A stretch of DNA of 11,280 nt from Planctomycetaceae bacterium (GTDB lineage: Bacteria; Planctomycetota; Phycisphaerae; Phycisphaerales; UBA1924). Within the stretch, counting starts at the first letter, position 1; every line of letters begins with the position of its first letter. Below the pieces are notes generated by a model, which searched no databases, was not told the origin of the DNA, and saw only the letters and a list, made by a program, of their open reading frames with translations. The position numbers and the translations under genes are program-made. The stretch covers positions 1-11,280 of the forward strand of contig JBDZUZ010000129.1 in NCBI GenBank assembly GCA_040255445.1, in the 5' to 3' direction. Shown one piece after another: positions 860 to 9,567 of this stretch.

Positions 860-1336
860 TCAGCAGCCGGCTGGTGGATATATTTTGACACAAAGGCCGT
901 TCAGCGGCGCGAGCGCGGCGCTTATGAGCGGCTCGACCTCACGCCACGCGAGGCCGCCGTTGCCGCAGCCGAGGGCCGGGATAGCGACCGACCGTAGCCC
1001 AAGCCGCTGGATCTCCCCGGCCATTGCATCAATCGAGGCACCAACGTCATCCAGCCGCGAGGCTTCACGCCAGTGCCGCTTCGTTGGAACGTTGATCACA
1101 ATACAACGCGGCCCATCGTGTGCAACGCGCACAGTCAGCACCTTGCCCGGCTTGAGTTCGCCGCGAGCGCACGCTTTGCGGTAGGCGGCGAAATTGGTCG
1201 GGAACGCCTGCTTGAACTGCAGCGCGAGCCCCTTGCCCATCACGCCCACCGTATTGACGGGGTTTATCAGGCCCTCGGCATCCGAGAGCAGCAGGTCCCC
1301 GGTGGACCGTACAAACTCGGCGCCGCCGTCGCTCAA
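860..1336 (-). CDS. Stand-alone macrodomain protein of the DarG/TARG1 type (ADP-ribose-binding / de-ADP-ribosylating).
   Basis: The translation [56 protein letters not shown]...[19 protein letters not shown]...[25 protein letters not shown] matches, from memory, the conserved blocks of DarG antitoxin and TARG1 macrodomains (GDLL start, NxVNxVGVMGKGxALxFK, KxHWR, PxLGCGxGGLxW). The start is uncertain. TTG at 1336-1334 overlaps the asnS stop (TTGA). The first in-frame ATG at 1480 would overlap asnS by 148 nt and is disfavoured. Confidence 0.78.
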
Positions 1337-2775
1337 AACTCCGCCTGCTTGGGCGCCCGCGGGAACGGGATCACATCGCGGATGTTCTGCATCCCCGTCA
1401 GGAACATCATCGCGCGCTCGAAGCCCAGCCCGAAGCCCGCGTGCGGCACCGTGCCGTAGCGGCGCAGGTCGCGGTACCACCAGTAGTTCTCCTTCGGCAG
1501 CCCCATCTCGTCGATGCGCCGGTCGAGCACATCCAGCCGCTCCTCGCGCTGCGACCCGCCGATGATCTCGCCGATCTTGGGCACCAGCACATCCATCGCC
1601 GCGACCGTGTCGCCGGGCGCGTTGTCCGTGCCCGCATCGTTGAGCCGCATGTAGAACGCCTTGATCTGCTTGGGGTAGTTGATCAGGATCACCGGCTGCT
1701 TGAAGTGCTCTTCGGTGAGATAGCGCTCGTGCTCACTCTGCAGGTCCGTGCCCCACTTGACGGGGAACTCGAACTTCTTCTTGGCGTTCTGCAGGATCGA
1801 GACCGCCTCGGTGTAGGGCAGCCGCCGGAACGGCGTCTCCTGCACATGCTTGAGCCGCTCGATCAGACCGTTCTCGATCCGCTCATCGAAGAACTTCATG
1901 TCGTCGGCCCGCTCGGTGAGCACGGCATCGATCATGAACTTGATGAAGTCCTCGGCGATCTCGCTGTCGCGCATCAGGTCGCAGAAGGCCATCTCCGGCT
2001 CGATCATCCAGAACTCGGCCAGGTGGCGGCTGGTGTTGCTGTTCTCGGCGCGGAAGGTCGGGCCGAAGGTGTACACGTTCGAGAGTGCGCAGCAGTAGGT
2101 CTCGACATTGAGCTGGCCCGACACGGTGAGATGCGACTCCTTGCCGAAGAAGTCTTCCTTGTAGTCGATCGCGCCGGTTGAGTCCTTGGGCCCGCCCGCC
2201 CGCGGCGGGTTCACCGCATCCAGCGTGCTCACGCGGAACATCTGCCCCGCGCCCTCGCAGTCGCTCGCGGTGATGATCGGCGTGTGGACGTAGTAGAAGC
2301 CCCGTTCGTGGAAGAAGCGGTGCACCGCCATCGAGAGGCAATGCCGCACCCGCGCCACCGCGCCGAAGGTGTTGGTGCGGACGCGCAGGTGCGCCTGCTC
2401 GCGCAGGTACTCGAAGGTGTGCCGCTTGTTCTGCACCGGGTATGTATCCGGGCTCTCGACCCAGCCGGTGACCTTGATGCTGCTGCCGCGGACCTCGACC
2501 GCCTGCCCCTTGCCCTGGCTGGCGACGAGTTCGCCCTCGACCTCGACAGCGCAGCCGGTGGTCAGCTTCTTGATCTCTTCAAAGTTGGCGAGCGCGCCGT
2601 CGCCGCCGCCGGGGGCGACGACCTGGATGGGGTCGAAACACGACCCATCCGACACCGCCACGAAGCACAGGCCGCCTTCGGCCTTGCTCTCGCGGTTGGT
2701 GCGGACCCACCCCTTGATCGTGAGCTTCGTCCCGACCGGGGCTTTGAAGGCATCCGCCACGCGCATCCACTGCAT
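1333..2775 (-). CDS. asnS: Asparagine--tRNA ligase (AsnRS).
   Basis: Near-colinear match to E. coli AsnS along its whole length, as recalled: [10 protein letters not shown]...[114 protein letters not shown]. The start is set at ATG 2775 ([10 protein letters not shown]...), preceded by AAGAAGGGA 7 nt upstream. The ORF-track extension to 2913 is rejected. Confidence 0.97.
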
Positions 2776-2950
2776 ACCGCTGTCCCTTCTTTGGAGCCCG
2801 CGGCCGACCCGGCGGCGGGGCCTCCATGGTAGGAATCCCGCCGACACCCCCGATTCCGCCGCACCCGGGCCGCTGGGATGCCGATAATGCAAGCGGACCT
2901 GACCGAATCCCAAGAATGCATCCGGTGGCGCGGGCTATCACCGCGCCCGA

Positions 2951-2958
2951 AAGGGGGA
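2951..2958 (+). promoter_or_regulatory. Shine-Dalgarno sequence for the flotillin gene.
   Basis: AAGGGGGA, 5-nt spacer to ATG 2964. Confidence 0.7.
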
Positions 2959-2963
2959 CCCAC

Positions 2964-4652
2964 ATGGGCATGATGTTCCTGATCGTCGGCGTGGTGCTCG
3001 CGCTCGCCATTCTTGTCAGCGTGCCGCGGATCCCGGGGGCGGCGCTCAAGGGCGCGGCCGCGGCGTTCGCGCTGCTGCTCGTCATCGCCGGGTTGCTGCT
3101 GTCTTCGGCGGTGTATGTGAGCGCCGACCGCGTCGGCATCGTCTCGAAGAACCTCTTTGGCGCCAGCCTCAAGGACGGCAAGATCATCGCCATCGACGGC
3201 GAGATGGGCGTGCAGGCCGATGTGCTCCCGCCCGGGTGGCACTGGGGCTATTGGCCGATCGTGTACAGCGTCGACACCGTTGCGCTGACCGAGGTGCCCT
3301 CGGATCAGGTCGGCCTCATCGAGGCCAAGGACGGCCTGCCCCAGGAGCCGGGCCAGCTCTTCGCGCCCGAGTTCAAGCAGGCCGAGTTCCAGAAGATGCT
3401 CGATGCGCGGTACTTCCTGACCGACGGCCGCGGCCGCAAGGGGCCGCAGTCGTCCGTGCTCACGCCCGGCAAGTACCGGCTCAACACGCAACTGTTCACC
3501 ATCCAGATGGTGCCGCAGACCGAGGTGGCGCAGGGCGAGGTCGCCGTCATCAAGGCGAACTTCGGCGCCGAGCCCTCGATCCAGATCAAGGGCGACGGGG
3601 GCGAGGGCGACATCTTCCTCGCCAAAGAAGGCGAGATGGGCGTCCGCGCCCGGCCCCTCCCGCCCGGCAAGTACCCGCTGAACACAAGGGCCTTCACCAT
3701 CGTCGAGATGTGGACCACGCAGATGATCGCCCATTACGCCGGCGGCACGACCTCCAACCCGACAAGCGGAGCCCCCCAGCGCAGCCGCGGCGGTACGCCC
3801 CGCGGCGGGCCAGAGTCCGAAGAACGCGAGATCACCGTCCGCACCAGCGATGGGTTCACCTTCCCCGTCGATGTGCGGATCGAGTACCTGATCCGCCCAG
3901 AGAACGCCCCCCTCGTCGTCGCGCGTCTCGGCAGCGATGAGGACGAGCGCTTCATGAACGCGCTCAACTCCGCCGTCCGCGCCATCTTCCGGAACAACGC
4001 AGAGGGCGTCCGCGCGCTCGACTACGTTCAGCAGCGGTCGCACCAGGAGTCCCAGTCTCTCGAGATGCTCTCCGATCAGATGGCGCGGTTCGGCGTGACC
4101 ATCACCGCCGTCCGCATCGGCAACGTCGGCGATGAAGCCTCGCTGGGGGCCCTGCTCAAGACCCAGACCGACCGCGAGATCGCCAAGCAGGAACTCATCA
4201 CCTTCCAGGAGCAGCAGAAGGCGGCCGAGCAGAAGAAGGAACTCTCCCGCGCCACCCAGGAGGCCGAGGAAGAGAAGCGGCTGGCGACCGCGGCGTACGC
4301 CGTGAAGATCGCCGAGGAGGAGCAGAAGCGCAAGGTGATCGAGGCGCAGGCCGAGGCAGAGGCGATCGGGATTCGCGCTGAGGCCCAGGCGCTGGCGTAT
4401 CAGCAGATCGCGCTGCAGATCGGCAAGGGCAACGCCGCGCTGGTGGAGCTGCTCAAGATCGTCGGCGAGCGGAACATCCAGATCACGCCGCGGGTGCTGA
4501 TTACCGGCGGGAGTGGTGGGGGTGGCAATGGGAGCGGCAACAGCGGCGAGACCACCGCACTGATCGGCACGATGCTGGACCACATGGTCTCGCGGGAAGA
4601 AGATGCCCCGCAGGCCCGCGGCCGGGTGACGCCGACCTCCGGGGGGAACTGA
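2964..4652 (+). CDS. Flotillin-like SPFH/band-7 membrane protein (YqiK/FloT family).
   Basis: Strong SD AAGGGGGA (2951-2958) 5 nt before ATG 2964. Two N-terminal hydrophobic helices. SPFH-like region. Long charged coiled-coil with EA/KQ repeats (QEAEEEKRLATAAYAVKIAEEEQKRKVIEAQAEAEAIGIRAEAQALAYQQ). Gly-rich tail ITGGSGGGGNGSGNSG, as in YqiK/FloT C-termini. Confidence 0.9.
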   Translation: MGMMFLIVGVVLALAILVSVPRIPGAALKGAAAAFALLLVIAGLLLSSAVYVSADRVGIVSKNLFGASLKDGKIIAIDGEMGVQADVLPPGWHWGYWPIVYSVDTVALTEVPSDQVGLIEAKDGLPQEPGQLFAPEFKQAEFQKMLDARYFLTDGRGRKGPQSSVLTPGKYRLNTQLFTIQMVPQTEVAQGEVAVIKANFGAEPSIQIKGDGGEGDIFLAKEGEMGVRARPLPPGKYPLNTRAFTIVEMWTTQMIAHYAGGTTSNPTSGAPQRSRGGTPRGGPESEEREITVRTSDGFTFPVDVRIEYLIRPENAPLVVARLGSDEDERFMNALNSAVRAIFRNNAEGVRALDYVQQRSHQESQSLEMLSDQMARFGVTITAVRIGNVGDEASLGALLKTQTDREIAKQELITFQEQQKAAEQKKELSRATQEAEEEKRLATAAYAVKIAEEEQKRKVIEAQAEAEAIGIRAEAQALAYQQIALQIGKGNAALVELLKIVGERNIQITPRVLITGGSGGGGNGSGNSGETTALIGTMLDHMVSREEDAPQARGRVTPTSGGN

Positions 4653-4772: not shown

Positions 4773-5312
4773 ATGAAAACCAGCACCTCCGCGATGGAAG
4801 TGGTCGAGTACCTCCAATGGCTGGCTTCCAATGAGCTCGCGGACGATGAGAGTTCGCCGCTGACCAACCTGATGGTTCAGAAGCTCCTGTACTTCGTGCA
4901 GGGGTGGAGCCTCGCCGAGACCGGCCAGCCGCTCTTCCGCGAGTCGATCGAAGCGTGGGATTACGGGCCTGTTGTGAAGGATGCGTATCAGGAGCTCAAG
5001 GTCTTTGGCAAGGCCGCGCTCCCGCTGATGCCGCGTCTTCGCACCACACTGACCGAGCACGAACAGGAACTGATCCGCGGCGTGTGGGACCGCTACAAGA
5101 ACTACTCCGCCTACGGCCTCATGCACCTAAGCCATCGCGAGCGTCCTTGGCGCGAGGCCGCGAAGGGCAAGACGATTCCGCACGAGGCCATGAAGCAGAG
5201 CTTCCTCGAGCAGATGCGGCAGGCCGAAGCGCGGCTCGCCGCCGCGTGGGATCGGATCGACAGCGCTGCCCGGACCAACACGCAGCAGATGTTCGGACGC
5301 GAGGCGATCTGA
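4773..5312 (+). CDS. Panacea-domain (DUF4065, SocA/GepA-like) protein, putative antitoxin.
   Basis: SD GGAGGA (4762-4767) 5 nt before ATG 4773. The translation contains VQKLLYFVQGWSLAETGQPLFRESIEAWDYGPVVKDAYQELK, which matches my recollection of the DUF4065/Panacea core (KLQKLLYyaqg...lf.e.ieAw.yGPV...vY). Stop TGA overlaps the ATG of the next ORF (TGATG). Confidence 0.65.
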   Translation: MKTSTSAMEVVEYLQWLASNELADDESSPLTNLMVQKLLYFVQGWSLAETGQPLFRESIEAWDYGPVVKDAYQELKVFGKAALPLMPRLRTTLTEHEQELIRGVWDRYKNYSAYGLMHLSHRERPWREAAKGKTIPHEAMKQSFLEQMRQAEARLAAAWDRIDSAARTNTQQMFGREAI

Positions 5313-6315: not shown

Positions 6316-7479
6316 ATGCCTACCGGTCGTCGGTTGCTCCGAGTCGTTGCGTGCTTCGCCATCGTCCTAGGCAATGCGATTGCGCCCGCGCACCAGCCTG
6401 ATCCGACCGCAACGCCCGCCGATGCGGAAGCATCGCGTGTCAAGACCGCCATCGCCCTCCTCGAATCCGCCCACGCTTCAACAGCACCCTTCGAAGTCCG
6501 CATCCGCTACGCCGGCATGATCGGCGGCGGGATCTCCCGAGCCGATGTCGCCCGCATCCCCGGCGCCACCATACTCGAACGCGGCGATCCGCCCGTCGAG
6601 CTCTTCGCCGTGCGCGAGGGTGTGCTCACGTGCGACGGCGCGGACGGCATGCGGCTGGAGAGCCGATACATCGCCGCTCGCGTCGGCAATCCACACACCT
6701 CAGCAGAGGTTTGGACCGCCACGGAGAACGCGGTTGTGCCGACGCTGGAGGCCGAGACCGGTGTGACCGTCCGCGCGGAACTCTACCGCATCAAGCCCAC
6801 CACGCAGGGTGAGCGAGCCGCTGCCTATCAGGGATATCTCTGGACCTACGAACGCCGGCGCGCCGTGACGCATTATCTGCCCATGGCCCGGCACGTCGCC
6901 GTGGTGCTGAGCGAAGACCCCGAGACCCGTGTTCTTGCCGCGACCGATGACGCGATCCACCTCGAATCGCCCGGGGCTGGGATGCAGGCGATTGTTGACC
7001 GCAAGAGCGGCGCCCTTCGCCGCGTTCGCTTCGCGGATATTCGCGGCGGCACCACCGATTACGAGTTCAACGGCGTGATCGATGGCCCCGGCTTCCCGGC
7101 CGCGCACCCCGCCGAGGTTGTGATCCGCTACCCCGGCGGATCGACCGCAGCGGAGCTCTACAGCGACTATCGCGCGATACCCGCGCCCGATCCGGAACAG
7201 TTCACATGGCAGTCGATCGCTTTCACTGCATTCGACCCCCGGAGCGGTGAGCAGTTCTGGGCCGAGAAGAAACCCACGCCGCCCGATGTGATGGTTCTGG
7301 GAACCACATCAACCGCAGCCACAACGCCGGTGCCGCCGGTCCCCTCGCCCAACATCCCCGCCAATCCCACCCCTGGCGGGAGCACCACCGTCCCGCTCTC
7401 GCCGATTCTTCTGCTGCTGGGCCTGATCGCCGCGGCGGCGGTGATAGGAATCATCTCGATCTTCAGGCCGAAGAAATGA
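6316..7479 (+). CDS. Secreted hypothetical protein with a Pro/Thr-rich linker and a conserved C-terminal TM-plus-basic 'sorting-signal-like' module.
   Basis: N-terminal signal peptide MPTGRRLLRVVACFAIVLGNAIA/PA. GC3-biased codons throughout. C-terminus PNIPANPTPGGSTTVPLSPILLLLGLIAAAAVIGIISIFRPKK*, paralogous to the C-terminus of the 9199-9567 gene. Confidence 0.7.
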   Translation: MPTGRRLLRVVACFAIVLGNAIAPAHQPDPTATPADAEASRVKTAIALLESAHASTAPFEVRIRYAGMIGGGISRADVARIPGATILERGDPPVELFAVREGVLTCDGADGMRLESRYIAARVGNPHTSAEVWTATENAVVPTLEAETGVTVRAELYRIKPTTQGERAAAYQGYLWTYERRRAVTHYLPMARHVAVVLSEDPETRVLAATDDAIHLESPGAGMQAIVDRKSGALRRVRFADIRGGTTDYEFNGVIDGPGFPAAHPAEVVIRYPGGSTAAELYSDYRAIPAPDPEQFTWQSIAFTAFDPRSGEQFWAEKKPTPPDVMVLGTTSTAATTPVPPVPSPNIPANPTPGGSTTVPLSPILLLLGLIAAAAVIGIISIFRPKK

Positions 7480-7631: not shown

Positions 7632-8837
7632 TCAGCACGAGCCTTCCCAGAGGTAGAAGAACCGGTTGATATCGTAACCATCGACCCCGCCGGACTGGTC
7701 AATATCGGCGCATGGAGACCCGCGCTGCCAGTCCTCGAAGAACGCGAAGATATCGTCGCCGTCGACGCCGCCCGAACCATCAAAGTCGCCAGGGCAGGGC
7801 TTGTTGCACGGCCAGTACACGCAGCCTTCGATCTCGAGCGTGTAGGTTGCCTCCAACGCGGCATCGCCCGTCCATCCGGTGACGATGCAGGCGGACCCGG
7901 GGCCATCCGGGCCGCGCTCGATGCCCGAGATGCCGGTCTGCCAGAGGGCTGCCCCTTCACAGCCGAGCGGCACGCGTGGGTGCGTGGTCACAGCGAGCAG
8001 ATAAGTGCTCGCGCCGCCGACCGCGCTGTTGGTCAATCTGGCCGAAACGCCGGCCGGATCGTTCTGAACATTCGCCGCGAGCGCGAGGCCGCGGCCGTCG
8101 TGATCGAGCAGGTACAGCGCGATGTCTCGGTAGGCACAGGTCACCGACGCCGCGAACGCCGCGGGGTTGCTGATGCGGACGGCATAGATATCGACATCGG
8201 TCCCCGCGCGCAGCCGGCCCATGATCGGGAGCGGATAGTCCGGATCACCGCCCGGCCAATCTGCATCTGCCGGCAGGTTGTTCGCGGTCGCATCATGCTC
8301 TTCCCGATCGAAGTACCAGTATTCGCTCTCCCATCTCATGCGACCGTGTTCGATACGCAAGGACGACGTGCTGTTCTCCGTGGCCGTGCTCGACGCGGCG
8401 AAACCGGATGGACCAAAGGTCGCCGGCTCCAGCGCGATCGCCAGGTACGCGATTCCGCAACAGCGCTCACCATCGCGGCCATCGAAGGGGATGGGCCCGG
8501 ACGAAGGGCGGCTCGGCAACGGCACACCGAAGGAGAGCGCTGCGTGTTCCGCCACGCCCTCGCCGTGGTCGCTCGCAATCAACTCGCCCTGGTTGTTGTA
8601 GACTCCGATCGCGATGTCGCCGCCCTCGACGCCGATATCGAGGAAGTTCTCGTAGCTGGCTAAGAACGGTGTGCCGTCGATGCGATACCAACGGACGGCC
8701 GGGCCGGCGAGGCTGAAGGTCCTTGCCTCGACCGTCCCCCGGGCTCTCATATCCAGCCGCTCCGCCATTGGCTGCGCGAGAGAGTGTGCAGAAATCAGCG
8801 TGGTCAGAAGCACACCAATCTGAATCGTTCGATGCAC
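7632..8837 (-). CDS. Secreted protein with C-terminal tandem dockerin-like/EF-hand-like Ca-binding repeats and a Cys-rich region.
   Basis: GTG start at 8837, preceded by GGAGGG with a 6-nt spacer. Signal peptide VHRTIQIGVLLTTLISAHSLA/QP. The C-terminus GDFDGSGGVDGDDIFAFFEDWQ...ADIDQSGGVDGYDINRFFYLWE carries two DxDxSGGVDGxDI..FF repeats. Several Cys residues (CVYWPCNKPCPG). Confidence 0.75.
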   Translation of the reverse strand: MHRTIQIGVLLTTLISAHSLAQPMAERLDMRARGTVEARTFSLAGPAVRWYRIDGTPFLASYENFLDIGVEGGDIAIGVYNNQGELIASDHGEGVAEHAALSFGVPLPSRPSSGPIPFDGRDGERCCGIAYLAIALEPATFGPSGFAASSTATENSTSSLRIEHGRMRWESEYWYFDREEHDATANNLPADADWPGGDPDYPLPIMGRLRAGTDVDIYAVRISNPAAFAASVTCAYRDIALYLLDHDGRGLALAANVQNDPAGVSARLTNSAVGGASTYLLAVTTHPRVPLGCEGAALWQTGISGIERGPDGPGSACIVTGWTGDAALEATYTLEIEGCVYWPCNKPCPGDFDGSGGVDGDDIFAFFEDWQRGSPCADIDQSGGVDGYDINRFFYLWEGSC

Positions 8838-9198: not shown

Positions 9199-9567
9199 AT
9201 GCTTTCAAAGACCACGCTAATCGCGCTCGTACCTCTCTTGACCCTGCTCATCGCGCAGGCATCGCCGGCCGCGCTGCAGACCGAGCAGCCGATGTCGCCG
9301 CCCGCTGCGCAGCCCGGCATCACGGAGGGACAGCCGGCAGACGGTCCAACGCAGCGGCCCGAAGAGGCAGCGCTCGTGCAGCCGCCGGAGCCCGAGGCTG
9401 CAACCACCCCAGCCCCCGGCCGCGCTGTCCCCGCGCCCAACACCCCGGCCAACCCCGCCCCCGGCGGTCAGACCGTCCTGCCCCTTTCGCCCATCCTTCT
9501 GCTCCTGGGCCTGCTCGCCGCGGCGGTCATCATCGGGATCATCTCGATCTTCAGACGCAAGAAATGA
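9199..9567 (+). CDS. Small secreted Pro-rich protein carrying the same C-terminal TM-plus-basic module as the 6316-7479 gene.
   Basis: Signal peptide MLSKTTLIALVPLLTLLIAQA/SP. Pro/Ala/Glu-rich low-complexity middle region. C-terminus PNTPANPAPGGQTVLPLSPILLLLGLLAAAVIIGIISIFRRKK*. About 80% nucleotide identity to 7348-7479 over the last ~130 nt. Confidence 0.65.
   Translation: MLSKTTLIALVPLLTLLIAQASPAALQTEQPMSPPAAQPGITEGQPADGPTQRPEEAALVQPPEPEAATTPAPGRAVPAPNTPANPAPGGQTVLPLSPILLLLGLLAAAVIIGIISIFRRKK

Follow-up and report, generated by a model that had tools for sequence, protein, structure and literature searches.

In the toxin–antitoxin system DarTG2, the antitoxin DarG carries a C-terminal domain that binds and blocks DarT, while its macrodomain alone removes ADP-ribose from thymidine in single-stranded DNA and rescues cells from DarT (PMC5179494), by means of a catalytic lysine equivalent to that of human TARG1 (PMC5179494). 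Uracil-ADP-ribose in RNA is a further DarG substrate, though one that is processed less efficiently (PMC13036486). The same activity is known from proteins that stand alone: the solitary SCO6735 of Streptomyces cleaves thymidine-linked ADP-ribose, rescues cells from DarT (PMC9411070), and has been proposed as a guard against foreign DarT-like toxins (PMC9411070), and the phage protein AdfM, consisting of a macrodomain only, defeats DarTG2 (PMC13309987, 2026). Here we describe a putative member of this kind on contig JBDZUZ010000129.1 of a Planctomycetaceae bacterium (Planctomycetota, Phycisphaerae), which in its full length of 11,280 bases (GC content about 65%) constitutes the window of this analysis. 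The gene, at 860–1336 on the minus strand, lies directly behind asnS, and its 158-residue product (the macro protein below) is a DarG-type macrodomain, specifically that of DarTG2.

Family, fold and active site of the macrodomain

Both profile and sequence comparisons place the macro protein with DarG. It matches Pfam Macro at 1.2e-18 and, in a phmmer search of the PDB, the DarG macrodomains of Mycobacterium tuberculosis (1.4e-40) and Thermus aquaticus (1.8e-39; entries 5M3I and 5M31), to which it is 45–47% identical, and the open reading frame is for these reasons not a chance one. The NCBIfam DarG equivalog (NF048014) is matched with 201.3 bits (2.4e-59), below its curated cut-off of 250 bits and over profile positions 4–150 of 338 only, and the PADLOC DarG profile at 5.6e-61 over positions 5–147 of 329. 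By comparison, NF001666 (PRK00431.2-2, ADP-ribose-binding protein), which we read as a MacroD/YmdB-type model, is reached at 6.9e-07 with 29.3 bits against a cut-off of 246, a negligible match. Weaker relatives of known structure are a Thermosipho DarTG fusion (2e-21), SCO6735 (5E3B, 2.2e-06) and TARG1 (2e-4).

The predicted fold gives the same ranking. An AlphaFold2 model built on alignment A1, with a mean predicted local distance difference test score (pLDDT) of 93.5, superimposes in Foldseek on the DarG macrodomains 5M3E and 5M3I with a template modelling (TM) score of 0.91–0.96 and a root-mean-square deviation of 1.2–1.3 Å, followed by TARG1 (4J5S; TM 0.78–0.83, E 2.5e-11), after which the other macrodomains rank. 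Neither in the PDB sequence search nor in Foldseek did any MacroD or PARG structure stand above those of DarG and TARG1. Since the best matches are not of the MacroD, Af1521 or PARG type, the domain is assigned to the DarG type, that of the DarTG2 macrodomain; the first-pass annotation of this DNA, which had favoured a DarG/TARG1-type over a MacroD/YmdB-type domain from the sequence alone, was correct in this respect.

Alignment to T. aquaticus DarG, compared with the residue list given for that protein (PMC5179494), identifies K86, located in a PTKRHW motif, as the counterpart of catalytic K80. Likewise N28, K35, Q40 and W89 correspond to T. aquaticus N22, K29, Q34 and W83, and the loop residues G123, G125, N126 and G127 to G117, G119, N120 and G121. 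Across 28 homologues (alignment A1) the mapped catalytic and ADP-ribose-binding residues show no or almost no variation, and only two of the T. aquaticus contact residues are substituted (N8 to D and T20 to P), both in a manner typical of the family.

Gene borders, absent partners and insertion behind asnS

The gene, annotated here as a predicted ADP-ribosyl-(thymidine) DNA glycohydrolase, is intact, its 159 codons including the stop running from a TTG start to a TGA stop at 860–862. The start overlaps the asnS stop codon in the tetranucleotide TTGA at 1333–1336 of the minus strand (tcaa on the plus strand), TTG serving the macro gene and TGA ending asnS; this overlap, already pointed out in the first-pass annotation, is evident from direct reading of the sequence and agrees with a survey of in-frame start codons. 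An upstream GTG at 1480 lies 48 codons inside asnS and would add 48 residues found in no homologue, and a downstream GTG at 1249 would cost the first strand and the NxVN motif. Both being implausible, TTG 1336 is the sole sensible start, and public gene calls concur, giving a 158-residue macro product and a 480-residue asnS product. Such an overlap would imply co-transcription with asnS and coupling by termination-reinitiation. A Shine-Dalgarno-like AGGCGGAG is present at 1339–1346 of the minus strand, within the last asnS codons, but ends 2 nt before the TTG (upstream context gcccaagcaggcggagtt TTG), and constitutes weak evidence because of this short spacing.

On its other side the gene abuts a convergent neighbour on the plus strand (3–857, cut by the contig start), encoding a pseudopilin-like protein with a weak resemblance to DUF1559 (Pfam E 0.0079, below cut-off) and having a GC content at third codon positions (GC3) of 0.91. 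With its end at 857, this gene comes within 2 nt of the macro stop codon; it leaves no space for a C-terminal domain behind the macrodomain and bounds the insertion on the 3' side. The macro gene exactly fills the gap between two host genes, overlapping one of them by 4 bases and standing 2 bases from the other. A terminator-like hairpin (a CAGCCGGCTG palindrome) with a T-rich tail, belonging to the convergent gene and found at 858–886 of the plus strand by a terminator scan and in the sequence itself, overlaps the last macro codons, VKIYPPAGC and the stop. The macro codons lying under the hairpin are AT-rich (AAA ATA TAT), unusual for a genome of 65% GC.

Full-length DarGs continue for some 195–210 residues beyond the macrodomain, whereas this protein has none and ends at the domain boundary. 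A hidden Markov model (HMM) of the DarG C-terminal domain, built from 109 DarGs, detected no remnant of it near the macro gene in the six-frame translated window. The upstream position usually occupied by DarT in DarG loci is taken here by asnS, and a DarT HMM, trained on 57 DarT genes that directly precede full-length DarGs, found nothing below E 0.48 in a six-frame translation of the 11.3-kb contig. Among the remaining genes of the window, neither an ADP-ribosyltransferase nor an integrase, transposase or phage hallmark was recognised by Pfam, NCBIfam or PHROGs. The first-pass description of a macrodomain without DarG C-terminal domain and without a DarT-like gene in the window is borne out by these searches, and since both components are absent the gene represents an orphan, an antitoxin enzyme without toxin, rather than half of a DarTG module.

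A further antitoxin-like gene at 4773–5312 of the plus strand encodes a stand-alone SocA/Panacea antitoxin-domain protein (Pfam 1e-21; NCBIfam SocA 5e-20, below cut-off; phrog_1281 3e-37; GC3 0.83). It has no recognisable toxin gene adjoining it, being preceded by an SPFH gene and followed by a YdcZ-type exporter gene, and is the second orphan antitoxin-like gene within one 11-kb contig. There is a faint match of the DarG C-terminal-domain HMM to this gene (E 4.5e-4 within the window; 64% hhalign probability across 43 columns), and the N-terminal portion of that domain, with the motif LTxLEIQKLAYFLQ...YGPY (L006–L039, alignment A2), bears a weak resemblance to the Panacea motif. A ‘split DarG’ made up of the macro and Panacea genes was nonetheless rejected, because Pfam SocA_Panacea matched a single one of 25 DarG C-terminal domains (E 0.12), no PDB sequence relative of the Panacea protein was found, and the two genes lie 3.4 kb apart on opposite strands, with asnS and the SPFH gene in between.

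The gene asnS (1333–2775, minus strand; GC3 0.93) encodes a housekeeping asparaginyl-tRNA synthetase (AsnRS) of 480 residues, with a class II core (Pfam tRNA-synt_2) and an OB anticodon-binding domain. Its best solved relative is the Asn-tRNA ligase 6PQH (E 2.4e-152), and its orthologues, 82–83% identical and named asparagine--tRNA ligase, come from Phycisphaerae/Planctomycetota metagenome-assembled genomes, which also indicate the taxonomic position of the present bacterium. Divergent from it stands the SPFH/Band_7 gene (2826–4652, plus strand; GC3 0.89), which is kept upstream of asnS in all three closest AsnRS loci and is directly adjacent and divergent in two of them (L255, L257). None of these three loci has a macrodomain downstream of asnS, where different genes are found instead, and nucleotide similarity between the window and the three relatives ends at 1332–1337, that is, at the asnS stop codon. 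In addition, none of 80 more distant asnS loci from metagenomes, with identities of 63% at most, contained a DarG-type macro gene. A conserved asnS–macro pair is rejected on these grounds, and the absence of the macro gene behind asnS in relatives makes the linkage lineage-specific.

Composition and ancestry concur with this picture. GC3 of the macro gene is 0.75, as opposed to the values of 0.89–0.93 in asnS, the convergent gene and the SPFH gene (binomial p ~5e-11), and its best homologue is 59% identical, the few named homologues belonging to other phyla. Given the low GC3, the distant homologues in other phyla as against the 82–83% identity of AsnRS, and the absence from relatives, the macro gene is a lateral, lineage-specific insertion. 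The region 3' of asnS differs in every relative genome while the SPFH–asnS pair is kept, and for this reason it appears to be a variable insertion spot.

Macro-only homologues and the role of the gene

Homologues consisting of the macrodomain alone (macro-only) are not rare, and are common in bacteria and phages that show no DarT beside them. In a k-mer-seeded protein search the best 120 matches (52–60% identity) were nearly all macro-only proteins of 146–190 residues, their sources being Actinomycetes, Myxobacteria, Acidobacteriota and many metagenomes. When the top 150 from an exhaustive search of 50%-identity representatives were classified by domain, they gave 61 full-length, 34 macro-only and 37 fragmentary sequences; the best 80 loci on one-genome-per-species contigs comprised 72 full-length and about seven short forms, and viral contigs contributed 55 full-length and 23 macro-only forms. 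The two best GenBank phage and plasmid matches (Thermus phage phiMa and a Streptomyces plasmid) were considered as macro-only candidates and rejected, both being full-length DarGs.

Architecture and the presence of DarT are tightly associated in these loci. DarT is present in 67 of the 80 genome loci, all but one of them full-length DarGs (the exception, L078, being a split DarG), and in 51 of 55 viral full-length loci; several of the full-length genome loci without DarT are cut at a contig end. In all, about 118 of 127 full-length DarGs have DarT immediately upstream, whereas in the macro-only loci, 37 in number (23 from viruses and 14 from bacteria), neither DarT nor a DarG C-terminal domain was found within 6–10 kb (Fisher's test of macro-only form against lack of DarT, p ~1e-28). 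The apparent exceptions are the split L078 with its DarT, L009, whose DarG is frameshifted and lacks a DarT, and two loci truncated at a contig end. The survey thus yields a simple rule by which a macro-only architecture goes with the absence of DarT. In a Corallococcus locus (L250, 6001–7119) a 156-residue macro-only protein, called ‘antitoxin DarG’ by NCBI and lacking DarT, is followed by a second gene of 212 residues that matches Pfam Macro and has no match to the DarG C-terminal-domain HMM.

No partner gene is common to the contexts of macro-only homologues. Two lie within type I restriction-modification (R-M) operons, in the orders hsdR-macro-hsdS (P0004) and hsdM-hsdS-macro-hsdR (P0058), and a third follows hsdS (L070, 7722–8216). 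Type I R-M operons harbouring a macro-only gene without DarT comprise L002–L004 (L002, 8001–8501), L254 (6001–6519) and L070, that of L002 additionally containing an AAA_15/AAA_21 ATPase with a DUF4276 protein. One homologue from the small clade of the query (P0092; L088, 7154–7603) begins 9 bases behind the recN gene of a nadK-recN operon, another attachment to a housekeeping or DNA-repair operon, and P0027 follows a PemK toxin gene in a toxin–antitoxin-rich island on a planctomycete-like contig. P0119, P0009 and P0087 are surrounded by unrelated chromosomal genes, and no aminoacyl-tRNA synthetase gene stands beside the macro gene in any of 37 macro-only loci with tabulated context.

We consider it somewhat better than an even chance, with a probability of roughly 0.55, that the product of this laterally acquired gene is an orphan DNA glycohydrolase for thymidine-ADP-ribose, expressed via asnS and providing standing protection against DarT2-type toxins. 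By family resemblance to DarG and TARG1, the single DarG2-type macrodomain would bind ADP-ribose on thymidine in single-stranded DNA, and K86 would cleave the base–ribose bond to restore unmodified DNA, with uracil-ADP-ribose in RNA as a possible second, less efficient substrate. The gene would have arrived by its lateral acquisition as a macro-only cassette, placed exactly between the asnS stop and the convergent gene, where the TTGA overlap would tie its transcription and translation to the constitutive asnS through read-through and termination-reinitiation. In this location it could act as an enzyme-only standing shield of the chromosome against thymidine ADP-ribosylation by DarT2-type enzymes of outside origin, whether these are brought in by DarTG-bearing mobile elements, in which case the effect would be anti-addiction, or are secreted or injected DarT-like toxins. 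The activity would be the one that phage AdfM deploys against DarTG2. Of the two roles left side by side in the first-pass annotation, a solitary de-ADP-ribosylase conferring immunity is favoured by this reasoning, whereas a housekeeping repair enzyme tied to an aminoacyl-tRNA synthetase is disfavoured by the unconserved linkage and the foreign GC3.

Several considerations weigh against such a protective role. TTG is a weak start codon and the Shine-Dalgarno-like motif is just 2 nt away from it, so that expression of the macro protein could be low. The exact gene is known from one sequence (a cluster of 1), and purifying selection on it is therefore not measurable. Activity and expression of the protein are predictions from sequence and model, and the immunity role is suggested by analogy with AdfM and by the speculation put forward for SCO6735, rather than by observation. 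Finally, the absence of DarT pertains to the 11.3-kb contig, so that a DarT may lie elsewhere in the genome.

An evolutionary leftover, in which the surviving piece of a DarTG module that lost its toxin and C-terminal domain remains intact but purposeless, appears unlikely, but it can draw on the phylogeny of the family. In a neighbour-joining (NJ) tree of 329 macrodomains, weakly resolved since it rests on about 145 columns, parsimony requires 44 changes of architecture, pure clades are small, and the query belongs to a group of eight macro-only sequences neighbouring full-length ones. When bias in the set was reduced, 37 of 65 macro-only sequences had their nearest relative among full-length DarGs and not among the other macro-only forms, with mean identities of 0.50 between short forms, 0.52 between short and long forms, and 0.55 between long forms. 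A separate old subfamily of macro-only proteins is rejected by both analyses, and the macro-only genes appear to have been derived repeatedly from true DarGs. Such scattering among full-length DarGs is what a leftover would leave behind, decay intermediates do exist in the frameshifted L009 and the split L078, and the type I R-M operons in which several macro-only genes reside are a known place of DarTG insertion (PMC5179494). Set against this, neither DarT nor the C-terminal domain has left a remnant beside the macro gene, its reading frame closes neatly where the domain ends, a feature shared by dozens of macro-only genes of independent standing, its active-site residues are all intact, and its precise overlap with asnS suggests that it is expressed.

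A distinctly unlikely proposition is that the gene serves anti-defence, in the manner of AdfM, on a cryptic or decayed phage or mobile element within the contig. Viral contigs hold a larger share of macro-only forms than species-representative genomes do (23/78 vs 6/80, p = 4e-4), 282 GenBank phage records contain homologues, and AdfM offers a characterised precedent (PMC13309987); the foreign GC3 and the Panacea gene as a second orphan antitoxin-like gene in the window point in the same direction. The window itself speaks otherwise, as PHROG matches are confined to the macro, SPFH and Panacea genes, no phage or integrative hallmark and no integrase or transposase domain was recovered in it, and the macro gene is wedged singly between two genes of host-like GC3. 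A prophage or mobile-element context was rejected because the remaining genes of the window gave no phage, integrase or transposase match in PHROGs, Pfam or NCBIfam.

It is improbable that the macro protein is an antitoxin acting in trans, holding in check by its enzymatic activity a DarT2 or another thymidine- or uridine-directed ADP-ribosyltransferase encoded elsewhere in the genome. The 11.3 kb at hand and the sufficiency of the macrodomain alone as antitoxin (PMC5179494) leave room for this arrangement, but it runs counter to the contrast between full-length loci, with DarT directly upstream, and macro-only loci, devoid of it, and no unlinked DarT–DarG pair was found among the loci examined or in the cited literature. 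Highly improbable, and the least supported of the rival explanations, is a housekeeping partnership with AsnRS in tRNA or RNA metabolism or in clearance of NAD metabolites (e.g., ADP-ribose-1''-phosphate or O-acetyl-ADP-ribose), for which the stop/start overlap, the automatic JGI homologue name ‘O-acetyl-ADP-ribose deacetylase’ and the action of DarG on uracil-ADP-ribose RNA (PMC13036486) may be adduced, but against which stand a linkage conserved neither in asnS loci nor in macro-only loci, the foreign GC3 and the negligible MacroD/YmdB-type match.

Returning to the orphan glycohydrolase as the preferred explanation, a broader and more tentative generalisation, which we hold to be possible but short of an even chance, is that chromosomal macro-only DarG2 genes are a recurrent ‘vaccination’ device, in which bacteria, and phages as well, would time and again detach the enzymatic half of DarG and hard-wire it to constitutive operons (asnS here, recN or type I R-M elsewhere), so gaining permanent immunity to the DarT2 toxins of invading mobile elements or competitors, a host-side mirror of phage AdfM. 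The notion is permitted by the lack of DarT in 37 of 37 macro-only loci, the polyphyly of these forms among DarGs, and the recent lateral insertion coupled to asnS. Should the protein prove active, one half of a toxin–antitoxin defence module, the enzymatic one, would be living alone in a bacterial chromosome and would neutralise DarT-type DNA ADP-ribosylation of any source, with a bearing on resistance to DarTG-bearing mobile elements through anti-addiction. The reading of defence annotations is also affected, as PADLOC, DefenseFinder and NCBIfam may label such genes ‘DarG’ where there is no DarTG at all, with a risk that orphans are tallied as DarTG systems. The chromosomal setting coupled to an aminoacyl-tRNA synthetase, the clean rule relating architecture to DarT, and this annotation risk are modest points of interest in what is otherwise a real but fairly ordinary gene.

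Neighbouring genes and comparison with known systems

Elsewhere in the window, two plus-strand genes (6316–7479 and 9199–9567) encode otherwise unrelated, secreted-looking proteins with a near-identical C-terminal tail of about 43 residues, a P-rich stretch followed by LPLSPILLLLGL..AA..IGIISIFR(P/R)KK, which looks like a sorting or anchor signal; neither protein has a Pfam, NCBIfam or PHROG match. Between them, on the minus strand (7632–8837), a secreted protein of 401 residues ends in a GC-type dockerin (NCBIfam 5.6e-07, just above cut-off), with nothing else recognisable.

Among described systems, DarG of DarTG2 (M. tuberculosis Rv0060, T. aquaticus; NF048014) shares with the macro protein its N-terminal macrodomain, catalytic lysine and ADP-ribose loop residues. 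Unlike DarG proper, the macro protein has neither the C-terminal DarT-binding domain of about 200 residues nor an adjacent DarT, scores under the equivalog cut-off, and belongs to no toxin–antitoxin pair in the contig. Human TARG1/OARD1 is of the same macrodomain class, with a catalytic-lysine mechanism, and is likewise a stand-alone protein of about 150 residues, which removes ADP-ribose from both thymidine and uracil adducts (T-ADPr and U-ADPr); it is however eukaryotic and remote from the macro protein, with an identity of only about 20%, an E-value of 2e-4 and a TM score of about 0.78. SCO6735 of Streptomyces coelicolor (ALC1-like, 5E3B; PMC9411070) is also a solitary bacterial macrodomain with no DarT beside it, but represents a different subclass, having Gln85 in place of the catalytic lysine (K86 in the macro protein) and, as described, a mobile loop longer by five residues, and it is conserved across Streptomyces, whereas the macro gene is a lineage-specific insertion.

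AdfM of the chimalliviruses (PhiKZ gp104; PMC13309987) has the same single DarG2-like macrodomain without a toxin, and the activity predicted for the macro protein, stripping DarT2-added ADP-ribose from DNA, is the same. AdfM is encoded by a phage and imported into the phage nucleus, while the macro gene follows asnS in surroundings typical of a bacterial chromosome and free of phage genes. In sequence the macro protein is much closer to bacterial DarGs than to AdfM, chimallivirus homologues being 31–33% identical to it. The chemistry and the concept of an orphan enzyme are already established by DarG, TARG1, SCO6735 and AdfM, and the present gene entails no new mechanism. By lifestyle the macro protein resembles SCO6735 and TARG1, though these are of another subclass; by architecture it belongs with the macro-only orphan DarG2-like hydrolases, of which phage AdfM is the characterised example.

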